A stretch of DNA of 18,566 bases. It comes from a virus. Lineage: Duplodnaviria; Heunggongvirae; Uroviricota; Caudoviricetes. Shown piece by piece: positions 448 to 16,107 of this stretch. The notes under the pieces are model-generated. The model worked only from the letters and a program-made list of their open reading frames with translations, ran no database searches and was not told where the DNA came from. A program made the position numbers and the translations under genes. Each line of letters starts with the position of its first letter. The stretch's first letter is position 1. Location: IMG/VR virus record IMGVR_UViG_3300049811_000196, positions 64,001 through 82,566 of that record; one strand, written 5' to 3'.

Positions 448-457
448 GTTTAAATAA

Positions 458-465
458 TAAATATT
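458..465 (-). promoter_or_regulatory. ATATTTAT motif (candidate phage late promoter) 9 nt upstream of ATG 447
   Basis: Minus strand reads CTTAAA-ATATTTAT-TATTTAAAC-ATG. Confidence 0.45.
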
Positions 466-523
466 TTAAGGGGTAAAACCAAATGGGTTAGAGAAAATAT
501 TTTTATGATATTCAAAATATTTG

Positions 524-531
524 TATATTTG
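524..531 (+). promoter_or_regulatory. TAnnTTTG element (Bacteroidota-type -7 promoter box) upstream of ORF 547
   Basis: TATATTTG at 524-531, 15 nt before ATG 547; no clear -33 TTTG partner. Confidence 0.35.
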
Positions 532-546
532 TAAAAAGATTATATA

Positions 547-909
547 ATGAAAAAGAAAAGGATGATTTTACCTACGGAACAAAAAGAACCGATAGTGTAT
601 GAAAATCTTCGTATAGATATTTTAGAGAAATTAATCGATGAACGCAATATCGATTATAAAAAAAGTAGGAAGGATGCTGATACGAAAAAAACGATTATTG
701 ATTTATTGAAAATAGATGATGAGGGGAAATATATTAGAGAAACCACATATGAAAAATCTGAAGGTGGGTATGTTGTAGGTATTGATTTAAACAATCATAA
801 ACATCTTGTTGAGATTGGGAAATTAGTTGAAAAAAAAGAAGCTCATAATCTTTGTAGATACACATCAAATATGTTATATTATTGGAGTAAACAAAAACTC
901 CTTATTTGA
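547..909 (+). CDS. Hypothetical protein; N-terminal half resembles a HeH/SAP/Rho-N-type helical nucleic-acid-binding module
   Basis: 120 aa ORF; YENLRIDILEKLIDERNIDYKK...TKKTIIDLLK has the helix-extension-helix hydrophobic spacing; 6 nt from the next gene. Confidence 0.6.
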   Translation: MKKKRMILPTEQKEPIVYENLRIDILEKLIDERNIDYKKSRKDADTKKTIIDLLKIDDEGKYIRETTYEKSEGGYVVGIDLNNHKHLVEIGKLVEKKEAHNLCRYTSNMLYYWSKQKLLI

Positions 910-915
910 CGGACG

Positions 916-1356
916 ATGAATTGGGTTGATTATTTTTTAAACATTGCAGAGCAGGTAAAATTAAAATCAAAGGACAAATCAACCAAGATAGGGTCAGTTG
1001 TTGTTGGTAAAGACAATGAGATACTCTCTACGGGTTATAATTCATTTCCAAGGGGATTAGATGATAATTTAACAGAACGTCAGGAAAGACCCGAAAAGTA
1101 CTTCTGGATGGAACATTCGGAAAGGAATTGCATCTATAATGCGGCAAGGATTGGGGTCTCTTTAAAGGGTTCAACCATGTATGTCACATCGGGAATTCCG
1201 TGTGTTGATTGTGCCAGAGCGATAATAAATTCTGGAATAAAAAAGGTCTATTGTAAAAGAGAATGTACCACAAAGAATAAAGAAAAGTGGGAAGAACAAC
1301 AATCACGAAGCATTATTATGTTTAAAGAGTGTGGTGTTGAGTTGATGTTCTACTAA
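916..1356 (+). CDS. cd: dCMP deaminase (deoxycytidylate deaminase family)
   Basis: Zn-binding motifs HSE (HAE-type) and PCVDC (PCxxC); STGYNSFPRG and SKDKSTKIGSVVV match the family N-terminus. Confidence 0.93.
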   Translation: MNWVDYFLNIAEQVKLKSKDKSTKIGSVVVGKDNEILSTGYNSFPRGLDDNLTERQERPEKYFWMEHSERNCIYNAARIGVSLKGSTMYVTSGIPCVDCARAIINSGIKKVYCKRECTTKNKEKWEEQQSRSIIMFKECGVELMFY

Positions 1357-1848
1357 TCACCAAGCCTTGCAGCTCCAATAGCGCGGACGGTACTTTGGAC
1401 CAGGATTATCACATTTATGTCTTGCTCTAAATGATTTTCTTCTTTCGGGATCGTTTTTTTTAATCTTCATATTAGGATCTCCGAAATTAACTTTAACTAC
1501 ATTTCCTTTGTCATTTTTAACGTATACGGATCTTTTTTTAGGTCCGTCTGGTGTTAAAAAAGGTTTGTTTAATTGAACTTTACGTCCTTTATATTCGGCC
1601 TCATTTAAGTTATCATCTGCGATGAAATTAGTTTCTTCAACCGAACCATATTCATCTTCTTCAATAGTTTTCTTTTTAGGGACACAGTTAGGTACTTCTT
1701 TACCATTCTTCATCTTTTTACCGACCATTTCATACCCTTTCCAACAGGGGTTCTTGTCTTTATTTTCTATAAGTTTTTTTAACTGTGATTCGGTAATTAC
1801 AATTTTTTTAACAGATGCGGTTTCTTTTAAAATGTTAGAAAGTTTCAT
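1357..1848 (-). CDS. Modular phage protein (probable head-associated): ITESQLKKLIE leader, CWKGY...VPNCVP module, C-terminal FRARHKC...RYWSCKAW module
   Basis: 163 aa ORF; short Cys/Trp modules of a kind I recognise from uncharacterised phage proteins; function unknown. Confidence 0.75.
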   Translation of the reverse strand: MKLSNILKETASVKKIVITESQLKKLIENKDKNPCWKGYEMVGKKMKNGKEVPNCVPKKKTIEEDEYGSVEETNFIADDNLNEAEYKGRKVQLNKPFLTPDGPKKRSVYVKNDKGNVVKVNFGDPNMKIKKNDPERRKSFRARHKCDNPGPKYRPRYWSCKAW

Positions 1849-1852
1849 ATTG

Positions 1853-1860
1853 ATAAATAT
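1853..1860 (-). promoter_or_regulatory. ATATTTAT motif 4 nt upstream of ATG 1848
   Basis: Minus strand: TAA-ATATTTAT-CAAT-ATG; it fills the 12-nt intergenic gap. Confidence 0.55.
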
Positions 1861-3234
1861 TTATCTTTCTGAAACAATTTCATATTTTATGATATTATCA
1901 TAGAATACTTCTTCATTATATAATTTAGCCTTTATTTCGATAAAATATTCTCTTGGTATATAAATCGAGGTGTCTAAAACAAACGAGTTTTCATTGGTTT
2001 TATCCAATTTTGTCCAATCGTGAACATTGACTTCGGTTTTACCTTCTCGTATGAATATTCTATAATAGACATCATCAAATAGTTCATTACCTTGTCTCTC
2101 TAAAGACCTGAAATAAACGGTAATTTTTCTTAATTCTCCTCTTTTTATTTTTTCATTTTGTTTGATCCCAAAAAATTGAATTTTGTATCTTTTTGCTTCT
2201 GTTGAATTAGTACCAATACTATAATATTCACTATACGGTTTTGGTATAAACTGTTGTGTTACATTACTTATACTAACCCCATCTATATTTAGATTCTTCC
2301 ATACATCCTTAAAGAACTTTTTACCGTCACATGTTATTCCATCTATGTTAAAAGTTACCTTATAAACACCCTTTCTGATTTTGGTTGTTTGTAGGTCAAG
2401 TAATCCTCCTATTTGGGTGTTTGTTGCATCATAGATATCTACGGTAGGATTATTATCGAGGTCGTAAAAATTACCTCCTTTTGTGACATATAAATAAAGA
2501 TTTTGGTTTATTTTTTCTACGAACTCATATCTGTTATCTTCTATGGTATCTTCAAAATAAGATTCAATAAAAGGTTCATAAAATGTTTGTGTGTATTTTG
2601 TAAAAAACGCCACGGATTGGTCTATATCTGGTATAAGATCTTGGTATGATACCGAAAACGCCAACCCTAAACCATAATTCGTTTCTCCAGATAAAATAAT
2701 ACTATTTACATAATTTGTGACATCAACATCTATGTTTTCGTCTCCATTGTCAAAATGGATAGTTTGGATTATGTCAGGATTTGTTGAGTAAATACCTGGT
2801 ATTGTCCAAGTATTTAGGGTTGTTCTATTAAACCAGTTGGATGGTCTTTCATCGAATGTTTTATTTCCTGCGGTAAAATCATATTCGGAGTCTTGGTAAT
2901 CAAAACCGACACCTTCATCCCAAAATTCGTCTAATTTAAATAAAATTAAATCAAATGATGTTGACCTTTCTCTTCCCGTTCCTCTTTTTGCACCCAAGAA
3001 TGTTTCATCACCAAAAATAGTATTGGTTAATTTTAATTTATGAGTGGTTCCGGAAGTAATAACATAATCTCCGTTATCGATTTTAGATTTTATATCTGTT
3101 AAATCGACTTTAAAGATAAATTTTGAAAACCCAGATCCATAGAAGATTTCTGTTGTGGGATTTTTTGCAGTATTTACTTGTGAATCTTTTAATATGGTGT
3201 TATTCTTTTCAAAATATGAACGGAAATATGACAT
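1861..3234 (-). CDS. Hypothetical protein, probable virion structural (beta-rich; DNRLRE/carbohydrate-binding-like N-half, Ig-like C-half)
   Basis: 457 aa ORF rich in aromatic and beta-strand residues; FDLILFKLDEFWDEGVG...NW...W pattern; lies next to a baseplate-like gene. The fold assignment is tentative. Confidence 0.6.
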   Translation of the reverse strand: MSYFRSYFEKNNTILKDSQVNTAKNPTTEIFYGSGFSKFIFKVDLTDIKSKIDNGDYVITSGTTHKLKLTNTIFGDETFLGAKRGTGRERSTSFDLILFKLDEFWDEGVGFDYQDSEYDFTAGNKTFDERPSNWFNRTTLNTWTIPGIYSTNPDIIQTIHFDNGDENIDVDVTNYVNSIILSGETNYGLGLAFSVSYQDLIPDIDQSVAFFTKYTQTFYEPFIESYFEDTIEDNRYEFVEKINQNLYLYVTKGGNFYDLDNNPTVDIYDATNTQIGGLLDLQTTKIRKGVYKVTFNIDGITCDGKKFFKDVWKNLNIDGVSISNVTQQFIPKPYSEYYSIGTNSTEAKRYKIQFFGIKQNEKIKRGELRKITVYFRSLERQGNELFDDVYYRIFIREGKTEVNVHDWTKLDKTNENSFVLDTSIYIPREYFIEIKAKLYNEEVFYDNIIKYEIVSER

Positions 3235-3244
3235 TTTTTTATTT

Positions 3245-3252
3245 ATAAATAT
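3245..3252 (-). promoter_or_regulatory. ATATTTAT motif 10 nt upstream of ATG 3234, overlapping a 12-bp palindrome TATTTATAAATA (3240-3251)
   Basis: Minus strand: GG-ATATTTAT-AAATAAAAAA-ATG; it also contains TATAAATA, the T4 late consensus. Confidence 0.55.
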
Positions 3253-3258
3253 CCAAAA

Positions 3259-4746
3259 TCAGTTAATTTTAATGGATTTATTTAATATGTCATTTTCCAA
3301 ATTCTTTAATAACTCATCCAAAATTTTGTAATTATTATCTGATTTAACCAAAGGTCCAACAATATTATGTTGATGACTGATTAACAAATTTACAATCGCT
3401 CTTAATATCTTTATCAAATTTTCCCCTCTAACGGCAGAAAACGTATTTGGTTCTAATTTTAGAACATAATCTTCTTGAGTGAGTTCATATTTATCCAAAT
3501 CGGTAAAATCTATTGTCGGTGTGGTTTCGTTGGTATCGGTAGAAATCATAAAAATTCTGTCAGACATTATGGATCCAAATGTTTGTTCTTCAGAATTTCT
3601 ATCAATGGTTAAGTTTTTTTCAATTATTTCTTGATTAAATTCTTTTGGATTTACAGAGGTTGCTGACCAAAATAATCCACTTGATGGTCCTACAGTAGAT
3701 ATCTTAATCTTATTTAAGATTTCTTTCTTTATTGCCAATTGATCTTCTGTTCCCGTTAGAGATTTAAAAATTTCTGAAGGTCTGAAGAAAAATGGGTGTA
3801 AATCTTCTTTTGTGTATAAAGAATTTAATTCATTCAAGTTTTTGTCATGTAACGTGAAAATTTTGTCCCTTACTTCATTAGTAACCTGATATATTGATGT
3901 TATTGGAAATGTAAACGTTGGGGATTGATCATTGTTTTCATTTATTAACTTCACCGCAGATATAGGTAATGGTGAATTTTCATTAAAAAAATTTGTTTTA
4001 AATGTTTGTCCCAATGATGAAATCACTTTATAGACATAAAAACGGATTTCCGTTGGATTTGATAGTGAATTTATTTCATATTCGACAATATATTTTAAAT
4101 CCCTACTCTCAGTTCTGGTTTTATTTTTTTTTACGTACTCAACACTTGCTTTATTTGTAAATTTTTTAAGATGTAATTTAGCAACTTTATTTGATCCTAT
4201 TGGGTACGAAACTAATTTTTTCTTTTTACTTAGGTTATTGGTGTCTTTTGTTATTAATTTTCCTCCTCTAAGTATGACACCATTATCGGTAAAAATTGCG
4301 TCAGACCCATATTTACCATAAACCCCATAATCACTTTCTTTTGCGAATATATTTTCGGATTTATCTATGTAAGTACCGGTTTTATTTCTAATATCTGGTT
4401 TGTGTTTTACCGCAACTCCGTATGTTGTGTTTTCAATTTGTTGAGAAAATGTTTGAGAATTAAAATCATACATTGTTGTGAAAGGACCGGCAATATATTC
4501 TTGATTAACAGTTTCTTTATCGGTTGAGTAATTGATTATTTTTACAGATTGACCCTCATTTGGGATGAAATTAATGTTGGTTGGTAGAAATGGATGCGCA
4601 ACAAATGGATCTCTATCACTCCATTCTTCATAATCAATAGACTTTTCTTTTTCCCCAACATAATCGTTGTATCTGATGCATCTAATTCTTCCAATTCCTT
4701 TTGGATCTATATTATTTACACAGATACCGATATCAATTATTTTCAT
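3259..4746 (-). CDS. Putative baseplate hub/spike protein with gp5/VgrG-like N-terminal OB-fold
   Basis: N-terminus IGICVNNIDPKGIGRIRC...FIPNEGQSVKII matches the G-x-V-x-(D/N)-x-x-D-P-x3-GR and P-x2-G-x2-V pattern of gp5-N/Vgr OB-folds; the remainder is unassigned. Confidence 0.6.
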   Translation of the reverse strand: MKIIDIGICVNNIDPKGIGRIRCIRYNDYVGEKEKSIDYEEWSDRDPFVAHPFLPTNINFIPNEGQSVKIINYSTDKETVNQEYIAGPFTTMYDFNSQTFSQQIENTTYGVAVKHKPDIRNKTGTYIDKSENIFAKESDYGVYGKYGSDAIFTDNGVILRGGKLITKDTNNLSKKKKLVSYPIGSNKVAKLHLKKFTNKASVEYVKKNKTRTESRDLKYIVEYEINSLSNPTEIRFYVYKVISSLGQTFKTNFFNENSPLPISAVKLINENNDQSPTFTFPITSIYQVTNEVRDKIFTLHDKNLNELNSLYTKEDLHPFFFRPSEIFKSLTGTEDQLAIKKEILNKIKISTVGPSSGLFWSATSVNPKEFNQEIIEKNLTIDRNSEEQTFGSIMSDRIFMISTDTNETTPTIDFTDLDKYELTQEDYVLKLEPNTFSAVRGENLIKILRAIVNLLISHQHNIVGPLVKSDNNYKILDELLKNLENDILNKSIKIN

Positions 4747-4949
4747 ACAAGTGGTTTATTTCTTTTACCTAATTCTTTATTCACTTTATTATATAAATCT
4801 TCAACATAATCCATATGTCTTGTAAGATTAATAATCAATTCTTTTGTTTTTTCAAACTCTTCACTTAATTCAGACAATACTTTCATTAAATCTGAATTAG
4901 ATTTATTTTCTACGTCATTAACTATTTCAAGTAATTTTTCTTTATTCAT
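4743..4949 (-). CDS. Small coiled-coil hypothetical protein
   Basis: 68 aa with heptad pattern; ATGA overlap with the downstream gene. Confidence 0.75.
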   Translation of the reverse strand: MNKEKLLEIVNDVENKSNSDLMKVLSELSEEFEKTKELIINLTRHMDYVEDLYNKVNKELGKRNKPLV

Positions 4950-4951
4950 TC

Positions 4952-6832
4952 CTAAAAGAATTTCCCCGATGAATTTAATGTTCCGGGTGGGATTACAATA
5001 GCGCCGGTTTGTGACGGTATTATAAATTGTTTATTTGATGTTTTAATATATGCATTTTGATCGATTTCCTCCACTAATCCGTTTATAATCGATTTAATAA
5101 TCTTAGGTAAATTATTTTCTTCCTCAAAAACCGGACCCAATGATATTCCTTCCGATTCTATCCTATTAAAAATATTCAATAACGCTCTTTCGTTACTAAA
5201 CCCAGATTGGGAATCTGAGAATGCCAATAAAAGACCCGGTACAGAAAAACTACCTTTTGTTGAAAGAGCGCTGTCAATCGAATTTATGATGGTATTAAAT
5301 AGGTTATTGCAATTATCAATATCGTTAAACTTTATTTTAAGTTTTAACAAAGTCATCGATTTAATTATTGTAACATATCTCTTATATTTCGTTTTGATTA
5401 TTTGCGAAACAAATGTTTTTATGAAGTTATACAAATCCACCTTTACTCTTTTCCAAAATTCTCTAATAAATGTCCAATATATCTCTTTTATTATATTATA
5501 ATACATTTTTGAAAATCTCTTCATTAAATCCTTACTGTCTTCAATAACGTCATTGTTAATAGATTTATAGATTATAACAATAGGTAAAAAAATTTTTGGG
5601 GATAATACTGACGCAATTAATGCTTTCGGTAAATTAAGTATGAATGTGTTTATTAATGAAATGTTGAAATTTGATTGGGGAATATTTCCGTCCGTGTTTT
5701 CATAAACATCAGAAGATAATTTATTTAATGTTGTTGATATTAATTCATTAATTGGTTTTTTATCACTTAAATAAACAAAATCTTCAAATATGGTTGTATT
5801 AATTGGTGCTTCAAAATTATTACAATCAGTAAATCTCATCACTTTTTTATATCTTGCTTCTTCAAGATCCAAATCAATCCCTTCAACATCATTAAAATCG
5901 AAATAGTATTCCACCGTTTCTTCATTTTCATTAAATAAATCTAACGGATTTTGATTTTTTAATTTGGTTTTATCGACATCGGATCCACAAATAGCAAATA
6001 ATTTTTTTAAAAGTCTATCTAAATCATTTAAACTTTTATTAAATTGAGGATTGTCACTCCCGTCACCCTGTATAGTAAACAACATCGCATTTTTAATTAT
6101 CTCCTCAAAATTGGGAAATTCGACAGATGCAAAATAGTCTGTTAAAAAAGTTTCTGTTGTGATTTCTGAATTAAATTGGGTTAATCCGTTAATGAAAAAT
6201 TCTTGATTTGATGTGCTCCAAGATGCCGTAAATAAATCATCTCTCCCATTTGTGGTGAAAGTGTAATCACTGGACGTAAATGTGTTATATAATCTTCGAT
6301 TGACTTTTTGTTTACCAATATCTGGTGTTTCCGGTTCGTATATTATTTTACCAACGTTGGTTTCGGGATCTATGGTTAATATATTTAAGAAATCGATTTC
6401 CTTTGGTTTTATTCTTACTTCATCTACTTTAATTACTGTATTGGCACCACAAATACCATCACCAGAAAACAATGAAGATTTTATGTTTTTTTCGATGATT
6501 TCTCTACTCGATTCTAGCGTAACTTTTAGAGCCTCTATTGCATTTAACGTTACCTTATCTTTAATTAAAAGATTATTTGAATTTACCAATCCCTTACTGG
6601 AGTCTGTGAAAGTTGAAATGATCTCTAATAATTCCGAAAATATATCTTTACGATTTTCAATTTTCTTTTTTCTATTATCTAGAAATTCATCAAGTTTTTT
6701 TCCGAAAAGTTGATCTGATGATGGGAGGTCTTTTAAATATTTTTCATAAACAGAATCAACGATACTTGATTTGTCATTTAATGAATTTTTTATTGCATTA
6801 AGTTTGAATTTAATTTCATCTATTTTTCTCAT
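4952..6832 (-). CDS. Large hypothetical protein (possible virion component)
   Basis: 626 aa ORF, TAATG-coupled to the upstream gene; no recognisable catalytic motif. Confidence 0.8.
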   Translation of the reverse strand: MRKIDEIKFKLNAIKNSLNDKSSIVDSVYEKYLKDLPSSDQLFGKKLDEFLDNRKKKIENRKDIFSELLEIISTFTDSSKGLVNSNNLLIKDKVTLNAIEALKVTLESSREIIEKNIKSSLFSGDGICGANTVIKVDEVRIKPKEIDFLNILTIDPETNVGKIIYEPETPDIGKQKVNRRLYNTFTSSDYTFTTNGRDDLFTASWSTSNQEFFINGLTQFNSEITTETFLTDYFASVEFPNFEEIIKNAMLFTIQGDGSDNPQFNKSLNDLDRLLKKLFAICGSDVDKTKLKNQNPLDLFNENEETVEYYFDFNDVEGIDLDLEEARYKKVMRFTDCNNFEAPINTTIFEDFVYLSDKKPINELISTTLNKLSSDVYENTDGNIPQSNFNISLINTFILNLPKALIASVLSPKIFLPIVIIYKSINNDVIEDSKDLMKRFSKMYYNIIKEIYWTFIREFWKRVKVDLYNFIKTFVSQIIKTKYKRYVTIIKSMTLLKLKIKFNDIDNCNNLFNTIINSIDSALSTKGSFSVPGLLLAFSDSQSGFSNERALLNIFNRIESEGISLGPVFEEENNLPKIIKSIINGLVEEIDQNAYIKTSNKQFIIPSQTGAIVIPPGTLNSSGKFF

Positions 6833-7203
6833 TAAATTTTATAATTTTCAGACCTGTCTTGATCGTTGTCATCGTCGCTGATTAATTTTTCCAACAATTT
6901 ACGATCCTCATCGTTTAATGTTAGTTTTCCTCCACCGGAACCCTTTAATGAAGAATCCAGTTGTTTTATAAATATATTTTGTAATTTAACTAACGAAATC
7001 TTTTTTTCTGTACACTCATTAAGTATTTTTTGCTGCTCTTTAATTACCGGACCTATGGTACTCATGTCTTCCGAATCTTTCATGAAAGAAAGCATTTTTT
7101 TCATAATTAAAGATGCATAATTTTTCTGTTCCGTAATATCATTATAAATCTCCTGCATTAACGCAGCGGCAGAATCGGTATCTAATAATACGTTATTTTT
7201 CAT
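6832..7203 (-). CDS. Hypothetical helical protein
   Basis: 123 aa; two long helices, a GSGGG linker and a short C-terminal helix. Confidence 0.8.
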   Translation of the reverse strand: MKNNVLLDTDSAAALMQEIYNDITEQKNYASLIMKKMLSFMKDSEDMSTIGPVIKEQQKILNECTEKKISLVKLQNIFIKQLDSSLKGSGGGKLTLNDEDRKLLEKLISDDDNDQDRSENYKI

Positions 7204-7207
7204 ATAT

Positions 7208-7215
7208 ATAAATAG
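7208..7215 (-). promoter_or_regulatory. CTATTTAT variant of the motif, 4 nt upstream of ATG 7203
   Basis: Minus strand: TAA-CT-CTATTTAT-ATAT-ATG, in the 14-nt gap after the sigma factor stop. Confidence 0.45.
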
Positions 7216-7217
7216 AG

Positions 7218-7916
7218 TTAGTCTAAAAATTCTCCCAATATATTGGAGTAAAGTTTTTTAAACTTTTTCATCGATGTTCTTATTTCTTTTGTTGATAAAG
7301 ATGTCATTTCTCGTAATGACAAAAGAATTAGGTTTTTGTTAAACTTATTCCCCTCACCAATTTGAAATATTTTGTCAAAATTGTTAAAAATCTCAAGTAA
7401 CCCATACCCCAATTTTTGTTCGTTTATGGATAAATCTTCGGTTTCCATGAATTCTTCTAATGATACAATTAGTTTGATTATAACATCACCATAATCTATC
7501 GCATATTCATCTATGGTATAGGATAGATGAACATCTTCTTCAAGATTTGTTGAAATATCTTCATACGATACATTTCTATTTTTTTCTTTAGTGTCTTTTT
7601 GTATTGCACCCATTAAGTAGTTCTTACAAATAGTACCAAAATAGGAATATGCCTTATGGTTTTTTGTATGATCGAACTTATTAATCTTTGTAATTAAAAA
7701 AGACATGGTATCCGTATGGATATCTTGAAATTCAAAATCTTTTCTATATAATTTATAACGTCGAATTATGCTTTCGACCATTATAATCAGGGGTTCTCTT
7801 AAATATTCATCGAATATCTTATTCTTTTCTACTTCGGAATCAGATTTTAAATATCTTATTACCGCTTCTTCTTGAGCATCCCCAAAATACATTTTTTGGG
7901 TTCTCTTTCTTGGCAT
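7218..7916 (-). CDS. Phage RNA polymerase sigma factor (sigma70 family, T4 gp55-like)
   Basis: Region-2-like segment: EEAVIRYL...KNKIFDEYLREPLIIMVESIIRRY...DIHTDTMSFLITKINKFDHTKNHKAYSYFGTICKNYL (FD-x5-AYSYF motif); no clear region-4 HTH. Confidence 0.75.
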   Translation of the reverse strand: MPRKRTQKMYFGDAQEEAVIRYLKSDSEVEKNKIFDEYLREPLIIMVESIIRRYKLYRKDFEFQDIHTDTMSFLITKINKFDHTKNHKAYSYFGTICKNYLMGAIQKDTKEKNRNVSYEDISTNLEEDVHLSYTIDEYAIDYGDVIIKLIVSLEEFMETEDLSINEQKLGYGLLEIFNNFDKIFQIGEGNKFNKNLILLSLREMTSLSTKEIRTSMKKFKKLYSNILGEFLD

Positions 7917-8705
7917 TTAAGATTCTGTATAATTTATATCTCGTTTATTTTTGAAAAAAAATTCTTTTTTTGCCGAATCAATCCAAAATTTTACTTCATT
8001 TTCATCCATTTTTTCTTTTCCTTCATCATTTTTATACAACCAAAACAATGAATCTTCTCTAAAATTAACGTGTTGATATCCAATTCTTGGAACTGTCATA
8101 ATTTTAACGTGGTTATGTGTCAACCTAAGTAAAAACTCATACCCAAATGATAGTTTTATGTTTTCTTTCAACATTCCATTTTCTTTTATGATATCAGTTT
8201 TATACAATCCACCCGATATTTGATAATTTTGGAAATCTAACAACACTTCGTTATCTAAATAACCTTGTTTTTCGGTAAACCCATACGCCCACGTAGATTC
8301 ATTCGTGAAACTTTGGAACTTACCTTCCGTATTGATGTCTTTAACTATGGGTAGAAATACAGAAACGTCAGTAAATGTTTTCATGTATTCATTCATTGAT
8401 TTTAACCATATAGGTCTATATTCGTCATCAATTTCTAAAATTGAAAACCACTCAGTTTCACATACCTTTATTCCTTCATTTACTTGTGAACAAAAATCTG
8501 TTAACCCCGTGTGGGTTTTAAATTTAATTTCTAATTTTTGGCTTAAATTTATCTCCTGTATTTCTTTTTTTAATTTATTTGTTGTTACAATTAATAATAT
8601 CACATCATTATGAAAAGGTTCTACTGAAGAAACCGCATTATCTAACATTTTAATGTAATCATCATTTAATTTATGGATCGGTAAAATTATGGTAATGTTT
8701 TTCAT
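7917..8705 (-). CDS. Glycosyltransferase, GT-A fold (GT2-like)
   Basis: ITIILPIH N-terminal strand, QVNEGIKVCETEWFSILEIDDEY (N-x-G...ExDD form of the DxD motif), SGGLYK, GYEFLLRL. Confidence 0.8.
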   Translation of the reverse strand: MKNITIILPIHKLNDDYIKMLDNAVSSVEPFHNDVILLIVTTNKLKKEIQEINLSQKLEIKFKTHTGLTDFCSQVNEGIKVCETEWFSILEIDDEYRPIWLKSMNEYMKTFTDVSVFLPIVKDINTEGKFQSFTNESTWAYGFTEKQGYLDNEVLLDFQNYQISGGLYKTDIIKENGMLKENIKLSFGYEFLLRLTHNHVKIMTVPRIGYQHVNFREDSLFWLYKNDEGKEKMDENEVKFWIDSAKKEFFFKNKRDINYTES

Positions 8706-9769
8706 ACTAACTCTTCCTCCTTTTTCATTCTTTCTAACGATTTTTGAATTGTTTCCATTCTTTTATTTTTTAATGATGCAAATATTGACAATATATTTCC
8801 TTCTGTAATAGAACTATCATAAGGTAAAAGGGTCTCTTTCATTTTATCTTTTACCTCATCAGTAAGTTCTACTCCTTCTAACCAAGCTAAAATATACGTC
8901 CCGACGATTTCTGCAATTTTATTACTATCATATGTCCACATACCATTCTCCGATAACCAATCTGGTTCCATATTTGGTATTTTTCCGACCACGGGGACAC
9001 CACATTTCATCGATTCTAATGGAAATGTACCGAATGTAGATTCATCATCAACCCAAACAGAAACAAAACATTCTTTTAGTGCTTCAGCAAATTCATCATA
9101 TGTTAATTGAACCATATCTTTAAATGTAATCCAACGCAATTGTGGGTATTTTAAATAAAATTCTGATATGATTTTTTTACTTGTGTTTCTATCTCGACAT
9201 GAAATCGCGATATATGGTTTTAATGGTAATTCCGAAGGTTTAAAATTATCCCCAATCATTGGCGGAATGATATAAACTAACGATTCAGGAAAGTATTCTA
9301 ATATATATTTTTTTGAATTTTCAGTTGTTGTAATAACCTTGTCAAATCCAAAATCACTCCACCTACTACCAATAGGTAATGTTTCGAAAATATATTCTTT
9401 TTGTTGGATAAGCATCACCTTCACACACTTTAAATTCATCAATTGTTGTAATGCATTTGAATAGATTTCGGGTACAACTAAAATATCATCTATTTGAATT
9501 TGAGGTTTGTCGTCTTTGATTGACACAACCTCGATATCGTTATATTTATCCCCTAACCAACCGGATACTCCTCCGTATGTGTTATCTTCAACTAAGATTT
9601 TGGGAAAAAATCCATTTTCCTTAAGAGTATAAGCTAAATCATATATGTACTTTACCGCAGCTCTCGGATTATTTTTTGTATCGTAGGTTAAAAAGTAAAT
9701 TTTACTTTCATTGTTTATTAACCTATTAATGGAATCCTCTAATGTCTCTATTTTTTCTTTATTATTCAT
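8702..9769 (-). CDS. Glycosyltransferase, GT-B fold (GT4-like)
   Basis: C-terminal STFGTFPLESMKCGVPVVG (FG-x-P-x-E-x-M-x2-G-x-PV) and N-terminal IYDLAYTLKENGF. The track start is 9781; ATG 9769 (MNNKEKIE) is preferred because it gives a smaller overlap. Confidence 0.8.
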   Translation of the reverse strand: MNNKEKIETLEDSINRLINNESKIYFLTYDTKNNPRAAVKYIYDLAYTLKENGFFPKILVEDNTYGGVSGWLGDKYNDIEVVSIKDDKPQIQIDDILVVPEIYSNALQQLMNLKCVKVMLIQQKEYIFETLPIGSRWSDFGFDKVITTTENSKKYILEYFPESLVYIIPPMIGDNFKPSELPLKPYIAISCRDRNTSKKIISEFYLKYPQLRWITFKDMVQLTYDEFAEALKECFVSVWVDDESTFGTFPLESMKCGVPVVGKIPNMEPDWLSENGMWTYDSNKIAEIVGTYILAWLEGVELTDEVKDKMKETLLPYDSSITEGNILSIFASLKNKRMETIQKSLERMKKEEELV

Positions 9770-10043
9770 AATCAACATCAAAAATTAAAATATCGTTTTT
9801 TATTAAAGTATTTACTGCAATATCAAATGATAAATTATCTTTTTCCCCATCGGAAGAAAATAATTTAGAATCAACCTCTTCATCATTAAATTCATTTAAG
9901 ACCCTATCAATACACATTTTCATTAACTCATATTTAAAGATGTTGATATTACCATCATCTTTTTTGTCTTCATCATAGACTTTACATTTTTCCATAGCAT
10001 TATCTAAATCTAGGTAGTAACCTCTTCCAAACAATTCTGCCAT
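9762..10043 (-). CDS. Acidic hypothetical protein
   Basis: 93 aa ORF overlapping both neighbours in the operon. Confidence 0.75.
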   Translation of the reverse strand: MAELFGRGYYLDLDNAMEKCKVYDEDKKDDGNINIFKYELMKMCIDRVLNEFNDEEVDSKLFSSDGEKDNLSFDIAVNTLIKNDILIFDVDYE

Positions 10044-10615
10044 AATTCTTGTATTTCAGATAATTTAGTTATTTCTTTATTGTAAGTAAAGAATTTATTG
10101 TAATCGGTATTAAACTTAATTACTTTTTTATTTGTTGGGCACAAATCTATGATGTCTTTATTGTCCGTGATCCATAAATCACATTGTTCCCATAGTTTAG
10201 GGATATCTTCTATTTTTGAAAATTTAATATTATTACCCAAAAACCCGTTCTTGGAAAGAAAAAATAATGTTGCGGGTTTTGCTTTACCAAACTCATTTAA
10301 ACCAATGATGGTAAAATTAATTTCGGGGTTTTTATATATAATCTTATTCAATTCAGAAAATGTGTTTGAATAACTTAACCCCGCGTGTCCGAATATCTCA
10401 ATTGGATATTCGATAAATAAAAAATTTTCGTATTCTTCTACCGATTGAAATTTATAAGACGACAATAAATCGTTATTGTTAATGGGTTCAATAACATTAT
10501 ATTCGAATTCTACCTCATTTTCAAATTCGGAGTTAAGAAACGCGTCTTTGTAGTGGTAATCTAATTTTTGTACTGTATTTCGTAATACCCCATCAATACT
10601 TATGAAAACATCCAT
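10010..10615 (-). CDS. HAD-superfamily 5'(3')-nucleotidase-like protein with degenerate catalytic motifs
   Basis: Motif I FISIDGVLRN (canonical DxDGVL), KPATLFFLSK segment, motif IV CDLWITDN (canonical D-x-x-IDD), followed by VIKFNTDYNK. Confidence 0.7.
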   Translation of the reverse strand: MDVFISIDGVLRNTVQKLDYHYKDAFLNSEFENEVEFEYNVIEPINNNDLLSSYKFQSVEEYENFLFIEYPIEIFGHAGLSYSNTFSELNKIIYKNPEINFTIIGLNEFGKAKPATLFFLSKNGFLGNNIKFSKIEDIPKLWEQCDLWITDNKDIIDLCPTNKKVIKFNTDYNKFFTYNKEITKLSEIQELWQNCLEEVTT

Positions 10616-10621
10616 AAGTGG

Positions 10622-10650
10622 AATATAACAACATAACGTTTATGTGTAAA
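10622..10650 (-). promoter_or_regulatory. Sigma70-type promoter TTTACA-N17-TATATT, 6 nt before ATG 10615 (leaderless or near-leaderless)
   Basis: Minus strand: GAC-TTTACA-CATAAACGTTATGTTGT-TATATT-CCACTT-ATG; 5/6 match to both TTGACA and TATAAT with a 17-nt spacer. Confidence 0.55.
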
Positions 10651-10676
10651 GTCTATTTACTTTAGGAATATCTTGG

Positions 10677-10684
10677 ATATTTAT
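10677..10684 (+). promoter_or_regulatory. ATATTTAT motif 4 nt upstream of ATG 10689
   Basis: Plus strand: GG-ATATTTAT-AGAT-ATG. Confidence 0.55.
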
Positions 10685-10688
10685 AGAT

Positions 10689-11687
10689 ATGAAAAAAAGA
10701 AAACTGTGGTCATTAAAAGAAATTGATTTTTTAATTAAAAATTTTGATGATAAAACAAACGTGGAATTATCTAAAAAATTAGAAAGAACAGAAAGATCGG
10801 TAGCTAAAAAAGCTAATATTTTAGGGTTAAAAAAAAGTAAAAATCATAAATCAAAATGTATCGCTAAAAGAAATAAAATGGTTGGGAGAGATATAACCGT
10901 AGAGTTAATTATTAAAGAATCTAAAAAATATAAAACTAAATCCGAGTTCCAAAGAAAAGATCCGTCACTGTACTCTGCTGCCAGAAGATTAAATGTGCTA
11001 AATGATGTATGTGAACATATGATACCTCAGTCATTTAGTATACCTCAATTGATATTAAAAGAAATTTTAACTCAATTATTAAATGTAAAAATAATTTATA
11101 ATAGTAGAAGAATTATTAAACCATATGAGTTAGATATTTACATACCTGATTATAATATCGCATTTGAATACAACGGTAAATTATGGCATAACTCCAATCA
11201 AAATGATTTAAAAAAACAAATGATTTGTAATGAAAAGAACATTAAGTTATTTACAATTAAGGAAAATAATAGAAAATATGAAATAGAAATAAAAAATCAA
11301 ATAATAATGTTATTACCAGAAATAAATAACATAACTAATTTAAATTTGGTAAAAGATGATGTGAATAACATCATTCTTGGTGATGTTTTTAGTGAAATTT
11401 ATAATTATAGATCATTGCATGAGGTATGTAAAAAATATACATCATTTAAATCTTTTATTGAAAATGAAAAAAGTATTTACAGAAAAATATTAAAAATTAA
11501 AAAAATTGATGAATTTACTTCACACATGAAGGATAGGAGAAAAAGAAGAACTACAGATGAAATTGCTGCCATAATATCAAAGTACGAATTCTTACTTGAT
11601 TTAATTAAGAATGATCAATCAACATATAGTTATATTAAAAAGTTTAATTTAAATTATTTATTAGAACCTTTAAAAAGAAAAAGATGA
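10689..11687 (+). CDS. Free-standing putative homing endonuclease: PD-(D/E)xK/Vsr-like nuclease core flanked by helical DNA-binding repeats
   Basis: Core YELDIYIPDYNIAFEYNGKLWH...DLKKQMICNEKNIKLFTI; N-terminal Myb/HTH-like WSLKEIDFL...ELSKKLERTERSV; KY-x-(T/S)-x-x-(E/S)F...Y...HM repeats; single gene in the opposite orientation to the backbone. Confidence 0.75.
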   Translation: MKKRKLWSLKEIDFLIKNFDDKTNVELSKKLERTERSVAKKANILGLKKSKNHKSKCIAKRNKMVGRDITVELIIKESKKYKTKSEFQRKDPSLYSAARRLNVLNDVCEHMIPQSFSIPQLILKEILTQLLNVKIIYNSRRIIKPYELDIYIPDYNIAFEYNGKLWHNSNQNDLKKQMICNEKNIKLFTIKENNRKYEIEIKNQIIMLLPEINNITNLNLVKDDVNNIILGDVFSEIYNYRSLHEVCKKYTSFKSFIENEKSIYRKILKIKKIDEFTSHMKDRRKRRTTDEIAAIISKYEFLLDLIKNDQSTYSYIKKFNLNYLLEPLKRKR

Positions 11688-12413
11688 TTAAACATCAGAA
11701 TATCTTTCTAAGATTTGACCAATAATTGGGTTTCTAACAATGTCTTTACTACCAAATTCAAATATAGCAACTTCTTTCATAGATTCTAATCTTCGTTTTG
11801 CATCGTACAAACCAGATTTGGTTTTATCTCTAAATTTGTCAGTTTGTTCAATGTCTCCTGTTATAAAAAATTTACTATTAAATCCTATTCTTGTTAAAAT
11901 CAACTTCATTTCGACAGGTGTAGTATTTTGACCTTCTTCAACAATTAAAATCGCGTTATCAATATTATATCCCCTTAAATGACTTATACTCAAAATTTCA
12001 ACAATACCTAAATCCTTTAATTTTTCAAGTTCTTCTTTACCAATAATTTTATTTAATAAATAATATGATGGAATAATATATGGATCCAATTTTGCGTTTA
12101 AATCGCCAGGTAAATGACCTATTTCTGTTCCAGCAACAACAGGGGGTCTTGCTAGTACAATTTTTTCGTATTTATTATCTTCTTCCCATAATAAATCTAT
12201 CGCCTTTTTTAGAGTGACGTAACTTTTTCCAGTACCACTAGGTCCAATACATATTGTTATTTGATTTTCTCCCAATACCTTCCAATATTCTTCTTGGGAT
12301 TTTGTTAAAAATTTTTCTTTTGGTTTTTTTATTAGTTCTCTTATTCTTTGTTTCTGTGGTGTTGCTTTATCTTCTGTTACTTTAGTTCCGGGCTTACTTT
12401 TTTGTTTTATCAA
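11688..12413 (-). CDS. phoH: PhoH-like ATPase
   Basis: Walker A GPSGTGKS, LARPPV, IGHLPGDLNAKLDPY, LRG, EEGQN, TRIGFNSKFFITGDIEQTD, DIVRNP; TTG start. Confidence 0.95.
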   Translation of the reverse strand: MIKQKSKPGTKVTEDKATPQKQRIRELIKKPKEKFLTKSQEEYWKVLGENQITICIGPSGTGKSYVTLKKAIDLLWEEDNKYEKIVLARPPVVAGTEIGHLPGDLNAKLDPYIIPSYYLLNKIIGKEELEKLKDLGIVEILSISHLRGYNIDNAILIVEEGQNTTPVEMKLILTRIGFNSKFFITGDIEQTDKFRDKTKSGLYDAKRRLESMKEVAIFEFGSKDIVRNPIIGQILERYSDV

Positions 12414-12433
12414 TTTCTAATGGTTTTATTCAA

Positions 12434-12441
12434 ATAAATAT
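12434..12441 (-). promoter_or_regulatory. ATATTTAT motif 20 nt upstream of the phoH TTG
   Basis: Minus strand: TGA-AG-ATATTTAT-TTGAATAAAACCATTAGAAA-TTG, in the 30-nt gap after dut. Confidence 0.4.
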
Positions 12442-12443
12442 CT

Positions 12444-13013
12444 TCATTTTCCAGTACTGCCAAAACCACCATCAGATCTTTCGGTTTCCGATAAATCATC
12501 AACTTCAATAAATTGGATTTTAGGGTATGGTAGAATAATTATTTGAGCTCCTCTTTCTCCGATACTATATAATTTAGCATTTTCATCATATTTCCTGAAA
12601 GTTGACATTAGTTCCCCGCGATACCCCGAGTCTATTATTCCAACACAGTTCGTTAAAGATAAATCGTAATTTCTAACAGAAGACCTTGGAAAGATAAGTC
12701 CGACATACCCATAGGGTATTTCCACAGAAATACCGAAACCGTAGGTTATTTTTGTGTCGTCATTTGAATATATTGACGTTATTGTCAAATCCATCCCAGC
12801 ATCTCCATCTTTTGAATAAGATGGAGATACTGCATCAGGATGGATTTTTTTAAATCTAACATCTAATTTTGGTTGATTAAATGTTTGATTAAAGACATTA
12901 AATAACGAATCGATTTCTTTTAAAAAAGACAAATCATCTGATTTATCATCATTTAATTTATCTTCATATTCTTTAATTTTTGCAAATAATTCGGACATCT
13001 TTTCTTCCATCAT
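12444..13013 (-). CDS. dut: Trimeric dUTPase with ~48-aa N-terminal extension
   Basis: All five motifs: AGMDL, PRSS, GIIDSGYRGEL, ERGAQII, ERSDGGFGSTG. Confidence 0.96.
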   Translation of the reverse strand: MMEEKMSELFAKIKEYEDKLNDDKSDDLSFLKEIDSLFNVFNQTFNQPKLDVRFKKIHPDAVSPSYSKDGDAGMDLTITSIYSNDDTKITYGFGISVEIPYGYVGLIFPRSSVRNYDLSLTNCVGIIDSGYRGELMSTFRKYDENAKLYSIGERGAQIIILPYPKIQFIEVDDLSETERSDGGFGSTGK

Positions 13014-13243
13014 AAAACCATTTGTCTTTTTTCTTTTACAACTTTAAGCAACCATTCATCCATTTTCCTAACTCTATTTTTCAAATCTTCATCGGCAGGT
13101 CTAATACAGTATTCAACAAAAACATCGGTTATTCTTTGTAATTCTTCGACACTTACTTGAATACCCAAGGACGTTACATAATCAAAAGCTAATTTGATTT
13201 GTGATTGCCTAACTATTTGGATTTGATTACTATAAAATTCCAT
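13010..13243 (-). CDS. Hypothetical protein
   Basis: 77 aa helical ORF (IVRQSQIKLA...); ATGA overlap with dut. Confidence 0.75.
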   Translation of the reverse strand: MEFYSNQIQIVRQSQIKLAFDYVTSLGIQVSVEELQRITDVFVEYCIRPADEDLKNRVRKMDEWLLKVVKEKRQMVL

Positions 13244-13246
13244 ATT

Positions 13247-13266
13247 ATTTATTTATTTATTTATTT
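13247..13266. repeat. (ATTT)5 microsatellite spanning an intergenic gap and a stop codon
   Basis: Five perfect ATTT units read directly; (AAAT)5 on the coding strand. Confidence 0.85.
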
Positions 13267-13491
13267 ATAAAGTTCTGGTGTATTTTTTTTATCTAAAATA
13301 CATTCAATTTGCATCTTAACGATAGAAATACTTTCCGAAGATCTAATATCTCCCGCCCTGTATTTAGACGCAATTATTGTTGCCTCCTCAACGGATTCCG
13401 CTTGAATAATGTATTTAAGTTTTTGTAATCTAGGATTTCCATTTCGATCCATTTGTTCTGTTTCATACCCGATTGTGACTAAGTAATGCAT
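13261..13491 (-). CDS. Small protein resembling DUF4494 (Bacteroidota-associated)
   Basis: YLVTIGYE...NGNPRLQKLKYIIQAESVEEA resembles the Y...G..K....YLV.A.S..EA pattern I associate with DUF4494; judged by eye only. Confidence 0.6.
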   Translation of the reverse strand: MHYLVTIGYETEQMDRNGNPRLQKLKYIIQAESVEEATIIASKYRAGDIRSSESISIVKMQIECILDKKNTPELYK

Positions 13492-13503
13492 AATTGTTTG
13501 TTT

Positions 13504-14730
13504 TTAATTATTAATAATACTTTTAAAAAATTGAATACGATCTTTACTTACATTTTTTAATGAATATTTGTCTTTAACTGTTTCATATAACCTATTACCC
13601 AAATCTTCAATCATGTTCGGATTTTCGATCAATTTTTTCATATGTTGAGCCCATTGTTTATGATTTTTCTTTGGTGATACAAGAAGAGAATTACCTTTAC
13701 CATTAAATTTTCCTTCGGAAATACCTGAAATTAAATCCAAGGTATACGGTTTTACTTCACTTGCAATTAATGCTTTTTTATGAAATCCGGCCTCAATTAC
13801 CTTTAATTGAGATTTACTTTCATTAAATAATGATTCCACTAAAGGAGCCAAAGAAACGTCGAAATAATTGTAATTAGATGCATATGTATCAATATTTCTC
13901 GTCCACCTTCTTACATAAGGTTTATCCAAATCATTATATGGAGATTCAACAAAATTAAAAAGATATGTTTTATAGTCCATATCCAAAACCCTGTACTTAT
14001 CGGTAAAAATACTTTCGTATTTAAACCAAACCGTTTCAAGTGGTTGTATTGGTCTTTGTCTTTCTTCTCCTGTTTCTTTGTTGTATTCCGTAACCGTACC
14101 CCTTGTATCAAATCCACATAAAACAAACTGTATTTTATCTTTAAATTGATTATGGATTGTTGAAATCCCACTTTCCAATAATTCAATATCCGCCAAATGG
14201 CTTGACCCACCAAGCCAACCAAATCTGATTTTTTCAGAACTAATTTTATTGGGTTGAAATTGTGGTTCTTCGTCATTTACTGCATTTGGGAAAATGATAA
14301 TATTTTTAATATTTAATCTTTGTTTTATTGTTTCCGCAAATATTGGTGTTGTTGTTGCTACATAATCAGAACTTTTTAATAGTTCAACTCTTTTCTCAGC
14401 GACATTTCCCGCCTTTATTGCATAATATAAAGGATGTCTTTGATCTACAAACCAAAGATCATCAATATCCATTATTGTTTTTATTCCATTTTCCTTTAAC
14501 CATTTTAATCTATTGACATTATGTTGGTGAGATAATTTATGAATGAAACTATGAAAATACACAATGTCATAATTTCTAAAAAAATCGTCATTATTTGGAA
14601 CATCTAATGAAATATCAACATGAATTTCATCGGAATAATTGTCTGAAATGTATTTAAATGGATCTAAAATTCTAAATTTTCCAACACCGAATTGGTCTGA
14701 TGGAATTGCTAATACTCTTATTTTTGGCAT
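13504..14730 (-). CDS. Glycosyltransferase, GT-B fold (GT4-like)
   Basis: GVGKFRILDP, IMDIDDLW, RFGWLGGSSHLAD, and DVSLAPLVESLFNESKSQLKVIEAGFHKKALIASEVKPY (APL...FN..KS.LK..E signature). Confidence 0.88.
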   Translation of the reverse strand: MPKIRVLAIPSDQFGVGKFRILDPFKYISDNYSDEIHVDISLDVPNNDDFFRNYDIVYFHSFIHKLSHQHNVNRLKWLKENGIKTIMDIDDLWFVDQRHPLYYAIKAGNVAEKRVELLKSSDYVATTTPIFAETIKQRLNIKNIIIFPNAVNDEEPQFQPNKISSEKIRFGWLGGSSHLADIELLESGISTIHNQFKDKIQFVLCGFDTRGTVTEYNKETGEERQRPIQPLETVWFKYESIFTDKYRVLDMDYKTYLFNFVESPYNDLDKPYVRRWTRNIDTYASNYNYFDVSLAPLVESLFNESKSQLKVIEAGFHKKALIASEVKPYTLDLISGISEGKFNGKGNSLLVSPKKNHKQWAQHMKKLIENPNMIEDLGNRLYETVKDKYSLKNVSKDRIQFFKSIINN

Positions 14731-14830
14731 TAATTGTTATATTATATGTAGAAATAATAACAAAAACTTTTAAATAAAAAAAATGTACCCTCTTTATTTT
14801 AAATAAAAAGTTCAATAATATTAAACTTAT

Positions 14831-15535
14831 ATGAAAGATATTTTTAATAGTGCATATAATATGTTTAACAGCTTTTTAGAAAAAAAAATTGATGATTACT
14901 GGAATAATTTTGGTTATGAGGTAAGAAGAAATCAATGTATGTCATTGATTAATTCATTGAATGATAGATTTAATTTTGAAACATTGAGAGTATTAGAAAC
15001 CGGCGTTTCACAATCTTATAGAGATAGTTTATGGGGATTATTCCTTGGATTTGCAACAGGATTAACTAATGGTAAAATGGATGCTGTCGATATAAATGAA
15101 TTATATGCAGAAAATTCAAATAAACTTTTTAAAGGAATAATACCAAATTTGGATTACCAAACACATGTGCAAGATTCCATATTATTTTTAGAAAACTATC
15201 AACATCAACCAAATATTGTACACTTGGATAGTTGGGATTTAGACTTAAAAAATCCTTTACCATCTGCATTGCATGGATGGAAAGAATTTGTTGCAATTAA
15301 GAATAAAGTACCGAAGGGTGGTATTATTATTATCGACGACAACTATATAGATAAAACATGGATTGAATGGAATTACCCGAATGGGTATTCAGAAAAAATT
15401 GTAACTCAGTACCCCATGACAGGTAAAGGATCATTAATTTATCACCACGTTATTGAAGGAAAAGATGATTGGGAATTGATTGGTACGCATTACAATGATC
15501 ATACAAACATAAAAATAATAATTCAAAAAATTTAA
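14831..15535 (+). CDS. Class I SAM-dependent methyltransferase (Methyltransf_24-like)
   Basis: VLETG (motif I), AVDIN (acidic end of strand 2), QDSILFL, IVHLDS, PKGGIIIIDD. Confidence 0.82.
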   Translation: MKDIFNSAYNMFNSFLEKKIDDYWNNFGYEVRRNQCMSLINSLNDRFNFETLRVLETGVSQSYRDSLWGLFLGFATGLTNGKMDAVDINELYAENSNKLFKGIIPNLDYQTHVQDSILFLENYQHQPNIVHLDSWDLDLKNPLPSALHGWKEFVAIKNKVPKGGIIIIDDNYIDKTWIEWNYPNGYSEKIVTQYPMTGKGSLIYHHVIEGKDDWELIGTHYNDHTNIKIIIQKI

Positions 15536-16095
15536 GACTTTTTTGACTTATTCACCCCTGTAATTTTACCTTTAAAAATAGAATCTCCTACTTTAAGCAC
15601 TAAGGTTTCATTAATTGACTTTGTTTCCTGTGCGGTCAATATTTGATTTAATTTTTCATCTAAAACTTTTCTAACAACATTTTCAACGATTGTTGTGATA
15701 AGATTAATGTCTAAATTAGATGTGTTGTGTGATTGTTTTGGTTTTTCGGATTTTGATGATAGACCCTCTCTCTCCATTAATTTTTTTGCCCCTTTAATAA
15801 AACTCATATCCAATGTATCGTTTAATGATACTTGTGGTATTGGATTTTCAATCATCGCCTTTTTAATTGCATCGGGTAATTTTGATTGATTTATTCTGTC
15901 TACATCAACCATTTGTTTACTATAATTTGTAGGTGGAGTGACTATTTTGGCAACTTCTTCGGGATCAGATCTTAATATATCTTCATTCACATTTCCTTTT
16001 TCAAAATCACCAATCTCTACTTTATCCATTACTTTTTTAGCTCTGACTAATCTACTCATTAAATCGTTTTGTGATATTGATCCTTGTTGTGACAT
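15532..16095 (-). CDS. Hypothetical phage protein
   Basis: 187 aa; SKLPDAIKKAMIENPI segment, C-terminal short beta-hairpin (LVLKVGDSIFKGKI). Confidence 0.8.
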   Translation of the reverse strand: MSQQGSISQNDLMSRLVRAKKVMDKVEIGDFEKGNVNEDILRSDPEEVAKIVTPPTNYSKQMVDVDRINQSKLPDAIKKAMIENPIPQVSLNDTLDMSFIKGAKKLMEREGLSSKSEKPKQSHNTSNLDINLITTIVENVVRKVLDEKLNQILTAQETKSINETLVLKVGDSIFKGKITGVNKSKKS

Positions 16096-16099
16096 AATA

Positions 16100-16107
16100 A
16101 TAAATAT
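16100..16107 (-). promoter_or_regulatory. ATATTTAT motif 4 nt upstream of ATG 16095
   Basis: Minus strand: AAAAT-ATATTTAT-TATT-ATG, in a 20-nt intergenic gap. Confidence 0.55.

Follow-up and report, generated by a model that had tools for sequence, protein, structure and literature searches.

What is the function of the short AT-only word that recurs directly before gene starts in the IMG/VR virus record IMGVR_UViG_3300049811_000196? We analyzed the final 18.6 kb of this 82,566-bp contig (positions 64,001 to 82,566; this stretch of 18,566 nucleotides (nt) is the window, whose coordinates are used below unless the contig is named) and followed the word through the whole contig and its relatives. 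The original prediction held that an octamer in the window is a late promoter, recognized by the sigma factor encoded at 7218-7916 and producing near-leaderless mRNAs. The results suggest that the heptamer TATTTAT, mostly with A or T behind it and often with G and a purine in front, would be the late promoter. Together with the phage sigma factor, it likely constitutes the late promoter system of this giant T4-like lake phage.

The contig has a GC content of 32%, is densely coding under table 11, and is 21% complete according to CheckV. Packaging and head genes of the T4-superfamily type (TerL, portal, prohead protease, and major capsid) are present, and the terminase places the phage in the T4 superfamily. 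No close DNA relative was found in the cultured-phage collection; judged by the sigma factor and TerL, the nearest cultured phages are Flavobacterium phage immuto and Microcystis phage Mel-JY01, at approximately 27% identity. The sigma gene has >7,900 relatives (90%-identity clusters) on contigs of up to ~350 kb, indicating that the contig is a piece of a very common uncultured giant phage. The public runs listed as matching this DNA were wetland and subsurface DNA metagenomes only, with no RNA run among them. The host probably belongs to the Bacteroidota.

In the window, the box was found before seven gene starts, and one further copy of the octamer lies inside a coding sequence (CDS):

457-463, minus strand: TATTTAT box, 9 nt before the ATG at 447 of a 544-aa homing endonuclease (phrog_3339, E 5e-86) whose gene continues past the left window edge
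1853-1859, minus strand: TATTTAT box, 4 nt before the ATG of 1357-1848 (163 aa, function unassigned)
3245-3251, minus strand: TATTTAT box with GGA in front, 10 nt before the ATG of 1861-3234 (457 aa, function unassigned)
7208-7214, minus strand: TATTTAT box, 4 nt before the ATG of 6832-7203 (123 aa), in the 14-nt gap after the sigma stop codon
10678-10684, plus strand: TATTTAT box with GGA in front, 4 nt before the ATG of the HNH/homing endonuclease gene 10689-11687
12434-12440, minus strand: TATTTAT box, 20 nt upstream of the TTG with which the PhoH-like gene 11688-12413 starts
16100-16106, minus strand: TATTTAT box, 4 nt before the ATG of 15532-16095 (187 aa, function unassigned)
6968-6975, minus strand: ATATTTAT copy within CDS 6832-7203, at a distance of 135 nt ahead of the next start; probably due to chance

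A coordinate check reproduced all seven sites and spacings reported earlier, namely exact ATATTTAT 4 nt before the ATGs at 1848 (-), 10689 (+), and 16095 (-), CTATTTAT 4 nt before the ATG at 7203 (-), and distances of 9, 10, and 20 nt before 447 (-), 3234 (-), and the TTG at 12413 (-), as well as the octamer inside the CDS. The accompanying warning that several octamers are expected by chance was also justified (12 in the window compared with 7.27 expected; 15 of 200 shuffles reached 12). The octamer as the conserved unit had to be revised, as its frame is one base off: the conserved core is the 7-mer TATTTAT, and the preceding base over 28 contig sites was A14/G7/C4/T3. Exact TATTTAT had 29% of its copies upstream of genes, whereas each of its 21 single-base variants had at most 12%; all seven positions matter. 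The flanks of the 28 aligned sites held little information (a weak G at -2, non-T at -1, and A or T after the box), and no information content was detected 20-40 nt upstream, that is, no -35 element. The apparent TTG start of the PhoH-like gene (12411-12413, minus strand) lies two codons past an in-frame TAG, and the 80 nt that follow contain no ATG in frame.

We then compared the 45 nt before the starts of the 112 contig genes with 2000 dinucleotide-preserving shuffles of the same regions. TATTTAT was the top upstream 7-mer on the sense strand, found before 27 of the 112 genes, while its reverse complement was found before 11; the shuffles gave 4.8±2.1 genes with a maximum of 13. Intergenic DNA makes up 12% of the contig and held 44 of the 92 TATTTAT copies on both strands. 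A (TAAA)n / (TTTA)n run at 13244-13268, before gene 13010-13243, creates several overlapping antisense copies, and the reverse-strand count is therefore inflated. The distance from the box to the start ranged from 4 to ~43 nt overall, and 9 of 28 contig sites fell at 4-6 nt (binomial P=1.7e-4). When 80 loci centred on the sigma gene were pooled, the end of the box lay 4 nt from the start 101 times, 5 nt 49 times, and 6 nt 17 times; distances of 0-3 nt occurred once and 7-9 nt never. Strand and position bias was present over the whole contig.

Orthologous sites were compared in 160 related IMG/VR loci, the 80 centred on the sigma gene and 80 centred on TerL. All are close relatives with 75-84% protein identity and not independent samples. 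Counts of orthologues with a box, and the distance to the start, were as follows:

Gene after the sigma gene (6832-7203): 79 of 79, 4-6 nt
Gene 1861-3234: 73 of 74, 11-15 nt, usually as TTGA-TATTTAT
Gene running off the right end of the window: 58 of 59, 14-18 nt
TerL: 80 of 80, 0-7 nt, mostly 4
Portal: 58 of 59, 4-6 nt
Prohead protease: 40 of 40, 16-21 nt
PhoH-like gene 11688-12413: 49 of 76, 29-39 nt
Gene 15532-16095: 33 of 72, 4-6 or 19 nt
Sigma gene: 0 of 80
Major capsid gene: 0 of 23

The sequence between the box and the ATG and the upstream flank varied freely among orthologues, while the word itself was invariant. This pattern indicates that the box is under purifying selection at orthologous sites. 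Because the loci are closely related, the counts represent selection at about a dozen sites and not 160 independent events. For gene 4952-6832, no orthologue in the sigma-centred loci had a box within 40 nt of its start.

On the contig, boxes were located 6 nt before TerL, 4 nt before the portal gene, 14 nt before the prohead protease gene, 21 nt before a 424-aa gene ahead of the major capsid gene, and 16 nt before the endolysin gene. Boxes also preceded PhoH, six HNH/homing-endonuclease genes, and several genes without assigned function. No box was found before the genes for dCMP deaminase, dUTPase, glycosyltransferases, Clp ATPase pieces, tRNA nucleotidyltransferase, or the sigma factor. The box was therefore found before late-type genes and not before nucleotide-metabolism or sigma genes, where timing is judged from gene function only. 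The motif had been proposed to precede endonuclease-like and virion-like genes; the six endonuclease genes, TerL, portal, and prohead protease agree with this, whereas a virion role for the window's own motif genes found no support in family searches. The major capsid gene, itself without a box, is probably co-transcribed with the preceding gene.

Upstream of TerL, a GC-rich hairpin and T-run is followed directly by the box and then by the ATG, and this layout was found in nearly all relatives. In this contig, the TerL ATG is preceded by two boxes, at distances of 37 and 6 nt. Strong hairpins upstream of the box, in the same terminator-then-box layout, were present at five contig sites. Gene class, invariance at orthologous sites, and placement after terminator hairpins all speak for the late-promoter function originally assigned to the motif, and TATTTAT very probably acts as a promoter made of a single -10-region element with no -35 partner.

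To what extent are the transcripts leaderless? A Shine-Dalgarno core was found upstream of only 2 of the 112 contig genes and of none of the 27 motif genes, as the original prediction had noted for its sites. A spacing of 4-6 nt places the first T of the box 11-13 nt ahead of the ATG; this applies to the nine contig sites and to the orthologues of TerL, portal, and the gene after the sigma gene. In bacteria, leaderless genes are marked by a TANNNT signal approximately 12 nt upstream of the start codon (Zheng et al. 2011, PMC3160421). The short-spaced genes share the features by which such genes are recognized, a -10-type signal ~12 nt before the ATG and no Shine-Dalgarno site (PMC3160421). In 52 leadered sites from three phages, A made up 71% and 75% of the bases at the 5th and 6th positions after the box, compared with ~45% at bases 2-4. 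This peak suggests that the 5th-6th base after the box is likely the start site, and the same positions coincide with the A of the ATG at 4-5 nt spacing, in line with the near-leaderless mRNAs foreseen earlier. The N-termini of TerL and portal align one to one from the box-adjacent ATG, and the terminator just upstream of the TerL box leaves little room for any other transcript. Transcription would start at an A ~5-6 nt after the box. With a box-to-ATG spacing of 4-6 nt, transcription would begin at the start-codon A itself, giving an mRNA that is leaderless or has 1-2 extra bases. This case would cover TerL, portal, the gene after the sigma gene, 15532-16095, 1357-1848, and several homing endonucleases, while the same promoter at the other sites would give A-rich leaders of 10-40 nt without a Shine-Dalgarno site. 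We consider leaderless or near-leaderless mRNAs at the short-spaced sites fairly probable from this geometry.

The strongest competing explanation accepts the promoter and places the start inside or past the ATG at short-spaced sites, so that the box would serve downstream genes and the adjacent gene would be expressed by read-through or from another start codon. A T4-like geometry would put the start 1-2 nt past the A at 4-nt spacing, some TerL orthologues have a spacing of 7 or 0 nt, and no leaderless translation is documented for the presumed host phylum in the literature considered. This explanation nevertheless has to contend with the hairpin directly upstream of the TerL box, which makes a poor supply of read-through, and with N-termini that are conserved from the adjacent ATG with no alternative in-frame ATG nearby. 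The sharp peak at 4-6 nt with nothing at 7-9 nt is what a start-site constraint predicts, and the A-rich positions of leadered sites fall on the A of the ATG. We regard a start inside or beyond the ATG as somewhat unlikely.

Next, we considered which sigma factor would read the promoter. Two features of the window are relevant:

7218-7916, minus strand: sigma gene, 232 aa; proposed reader of the box, with no box of its own
10616-10650, minus strand: two-part promoter-like site consisting of TTTACA, 17 nt, TATATT, 6 nt, and the ATG of gene 10010-10615

The product of 7218-7916 matched Sigma70_r2 (E 6.6e-4) and the phrog_234 late sigma family (E 8.9e-4), both weakly, and its best PDB sequence match was T4 gp55 (7d7c_F, E 0.045). 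A profile of 67 sigma homologues matched primary sigma region 2 slightly better than gp55. The AlphaFold2 (AF2) model reached a predicted local distance difference test score (pLDDT) of 93.4 with a 67-sequence alignment and 43.7 from the single sequence. Residues ~10-115 of the model superpose on sigma region 2 with Z ~9 and a root-mean-square deviation (rmsd) of 2.5-3 Å (for example, 4lup, Z 9.1, rmsd 2.5 Å over 91 residues; 5h6x, Z 9.3). The top Foldseek matches were all sigma factors, with alignments reaching the C-terminus. According to the model, the 7218-7916 product has the helical fold of sigma region 2.

The same word was found in the two cultured phages, each of which encodes a homologue of this sigma factor. 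In immuto, with the gene calls of GenBank, TATTTAT with A or T behind it lies 11-42 nt ahead of the gene that comes after the sigma homologue and of the genes for TerL, portal, tail sheath, tail completion, baseplate hub, tape measure, tail fibres, and PhoH. In the structural module of Mel-JY01, TATTTAT is the top upstream 7-mer (10 of 39 genes, 25-35 nt upstream). In two more sigma lineages, with 32% and 36% identity, the box stands before the gene that follows the sigma gene. The fold, the match to gp55, and the recurrence of the word with a sigma homologue agree with the proposal that the encoded sigma factor reads the box, and host core RNA polymerase carrying the 7218-7916 sigma is quite likely the reader on these grounds. 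In a distant sigma lineage (locus L170, 33% identity), CTATTTAA or CTATTTAC takes the place of TATTTAT, at 10760-10810, 14800-14846, and 1140-1185 of that locus; this may represent co-variation of sigma and promoter.

Gene 10010-10615 heads a glycosyltransferase operon whose last gene is the sigma gene, and the TTTACA-TATATT arrangement before 10615 is kept in most orthologous loci. As the sigma gene is last in an operon under a two-part promoter, the arrangement fits a cascade from a host-type promoter through the phage sigma to the late boxes. The sigma gene would be transcribed from this promoter, the step from early to late would follow, and the first late box would be the one right behind the sigma stop codon. 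The two-part promoter before 10615 would likewise yield a leaderless mRNA. A scan of the contig for TTTG-N17-21-TAnnTTTG gave 11 sites, few of them before genes, and a scan for TTKAC-N17-19-TATAWT gave one relevant site; with results this sparse, the fragment says little on early promoters.

Alternatively, the host primary sigma might read the box as an ordinary -10 element, or as the "-7" element of Bacteroidota, and the phage sigma would have another job. Bacteroidota primary-sigma promoters consist of TTTG at -33 and TAnnTTTG at -7. Set against TAnnTTTG, TATTTATN agrees at both TA bases and at two of the three T's. The genome is AT-rich and Shine-Dalgarno-free, as in Bacteroidota, and the clear host-type promoter in the window contains the similar TATATT. 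That promoter, however, has a -35-type partner, while no conserved -35 or -33 partner accompanies the box, and TATTTA does not have the last-position T that TANNNT-type elements keep. The box is moreover limited to late-type genes. The identical word recurs in phages whose recorded hosts come from two phyla, Flavobacterium and Microcystis, all with a sigma homologue, which points to the shared phage sigma as the reader and not to each host's primary sigma. Reading by the host primary sigma is accordingly improbable.

The word could also act in RNA as UAUUUAU, as the site of a translational regulator, an AU-rich ribosome recruiter, or an RNase site, without any promoter. Its strand specificity and its position near start codons in a genome without Shine-Dalgarno sites would suit such a role. 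A distance to the start that varies from 4 to ~43 nt does not, and neither does Mel-JY01, where the word stands 25-35 nt upstream and the leaders after it have their own GGAG-type Shine-Dalgarno sites, so that TATTTAT itself is not a ribosome signal there. Behind terminators, the word would often not be transcribed at all, and only the first gene of a cluster has it (the major capsid gene lacked it in 23 of 23 orthologues). We therefore consider an RNA-level role very improbable. A chance word in a 32% GC genome, which the octamer count of the window alone would allow, was refuted by the 27 genes against 4.8±2.1 in composition-matched shuffles, the strand bias, the invariance at orthologous sites, and the recurrence in distant phages, and has practically no probability left.

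Several observations count against the late promoter and its reading by the phage sigma as proposed here. Some boxes precede genes that are not necessarily late, such as PhoH. The ortholog counts rest on about a dozen orthologous sites, and the pooled spacing count from sigma-centred loci likewise draws on few independent sites. The homology of the sigma factor to gp55 is weak (E 0.045), and at 232 aa the protein is longer than gp55 (185 aa), with alignments to full-length sigma factors that reach the C-terminus. It may thus contain a region 4-like domain, yet no -35 element was found. The 21%-complete fragment yielded no gp33-like co-activator and no sliding clamp; a family search of it for the gp45 clamp gave no match, and the controls of that search gave no response either. 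Regarding the start site, the A of the ATG at 4-nt spacing comes at base 6 behind the TATTTA hexamer, whereas the canonical start position in bacteria is one base farther away, and the spacing in TerL orthologues is 7 nt in some and 0 in one.

Both concepts combined here, a phage sigma with a -10-only late box and leaderless genes marked by a -10 signal, are established. The TATTTAT system is therefore a variant and not a new kind of system, and its closest counterpart is the T4 late promoter. In T4, the late promoter TATAAATA is a TATA-type box of 8 bp that has an AT-rich region downstream and lacks a -35 element; gp55 recognizes it together with gp33 and the gp45 clamp (Geiduschek and Kassavetis 2010, PMC2988020). 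The two systems share a single box of A and T only, roughly a helical turn ahead of the start, with an AT-rich stretch just downstream and no -35 element, a position before virion, lysis, and mobile-endonuclease genes, and a divergent phage-encoded sigma, here with gp55 as its best PDB sequence match. They differ in the two central bases of the box (TATTTATA here and TATAAATA in T4, 6 of 8 bases identical), in the length and C-terminal alignment of the sigma, and in gp33 and the clamp, which were not found in this fragment. A box abutting the ATG, which is frequent here, is not known to be a feature of T4 late genes.

The motif had been described as essentially the reverse complement of the T4 box. 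This resemblance, which arises because the boxes are near-palindromic, carries no mechanistic weight, as the same-direction comparison already gives 6 of 8 bases. A reverse-complement mechanism was rejected, since a promoter works in one direction and the word lies on the sense strand.

Compared with TANNNT leaderless genes (PMC3160421), the short-spaced sites similarly have a -10-type signal with its first T 11-13 nt before the ATG, no Shine-Dalgarno site, and a sharp positional peak. Unlike those genes, they carry a phage-specific 7-mer that does not fit TANNNT and serves a subset of late phage genes, and the reader is presumably the phage sigma and not the host primary sigma. The likeness to Bacteroidota promoters lies in an AT-rich element near the start site of a Shine-Dalgarno-free genome, and the two-part site before 10615 resembles them; TATTTAT differs in having neither the TTTG end nor a -33 partner. 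A full-text search of the literature returned no description of a TATTTAT or TATTTATA phage promoter, nor of one for immuto or Mel-JY01. The transcriptome of Ma-LMM01 was set aside as a comparison, as Ma-LMM01 is a phage without gp55.

With the late promoter known, late genes and operon starts could be annotated from sequence in thousands of metagenomic contigs. The T4 box and the TATTTAT box, only two central bases apart, form a natural pair for studying -10 recognition by gp55-type sigmas. Should the mRNAs of the short-spaced sites really be leaderless, a phage whose host is Shine-Dalgarno-free and probably one of the Bacteroidota would express essential virion genes through 5'-terminal AUG initiation. 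A broader scenario, in which one TATTTAT-sigma pair is common to T4-like phages of different host phyla and the freshwater giant lineage moved TerL, portal, and mobile endonucleases to leaderless translation, seems rather doubtful. If the phage also biases ribosomes to 5'-terminal AUGs late in infection, late genes would be controlled a second time, at translation, through promoter-to-ATG spacing and independently of host ribosome-binding signals.

The gene behind the first late box (6832-7203, minus strand) encodes a conserved, helical 123-aa protein whose N-terminus is conserved from its ATG. It also follows the sigma homologue in immuto and three other sigma lineages, where a late box or a variant of one always precedes it. 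PHROG and Pfam gave no family for it, and a PDB search gave designed-repeat noise only. A gp33-like co-activator role for this protein is a speculative idea.

Strong AAGGAGG-type Shine-Dalgarno sites were found before only two contig genes, 7917-8705 in the window (site 8706-8730, minus strand) and 13397-13858 of the contig (site 13859-13880, minus strand). The portal gene, which is beyond the window (contig 54449-57433), contains a 386-residue in-frame insertion with an HNH endonuclease domain. The insertion begins with Cys and ends with His-Asn followed by Thr, and the portals of relatives align to residues 1-95 and 482-993 around it. From these sequence features, the insertion looks like an intein.

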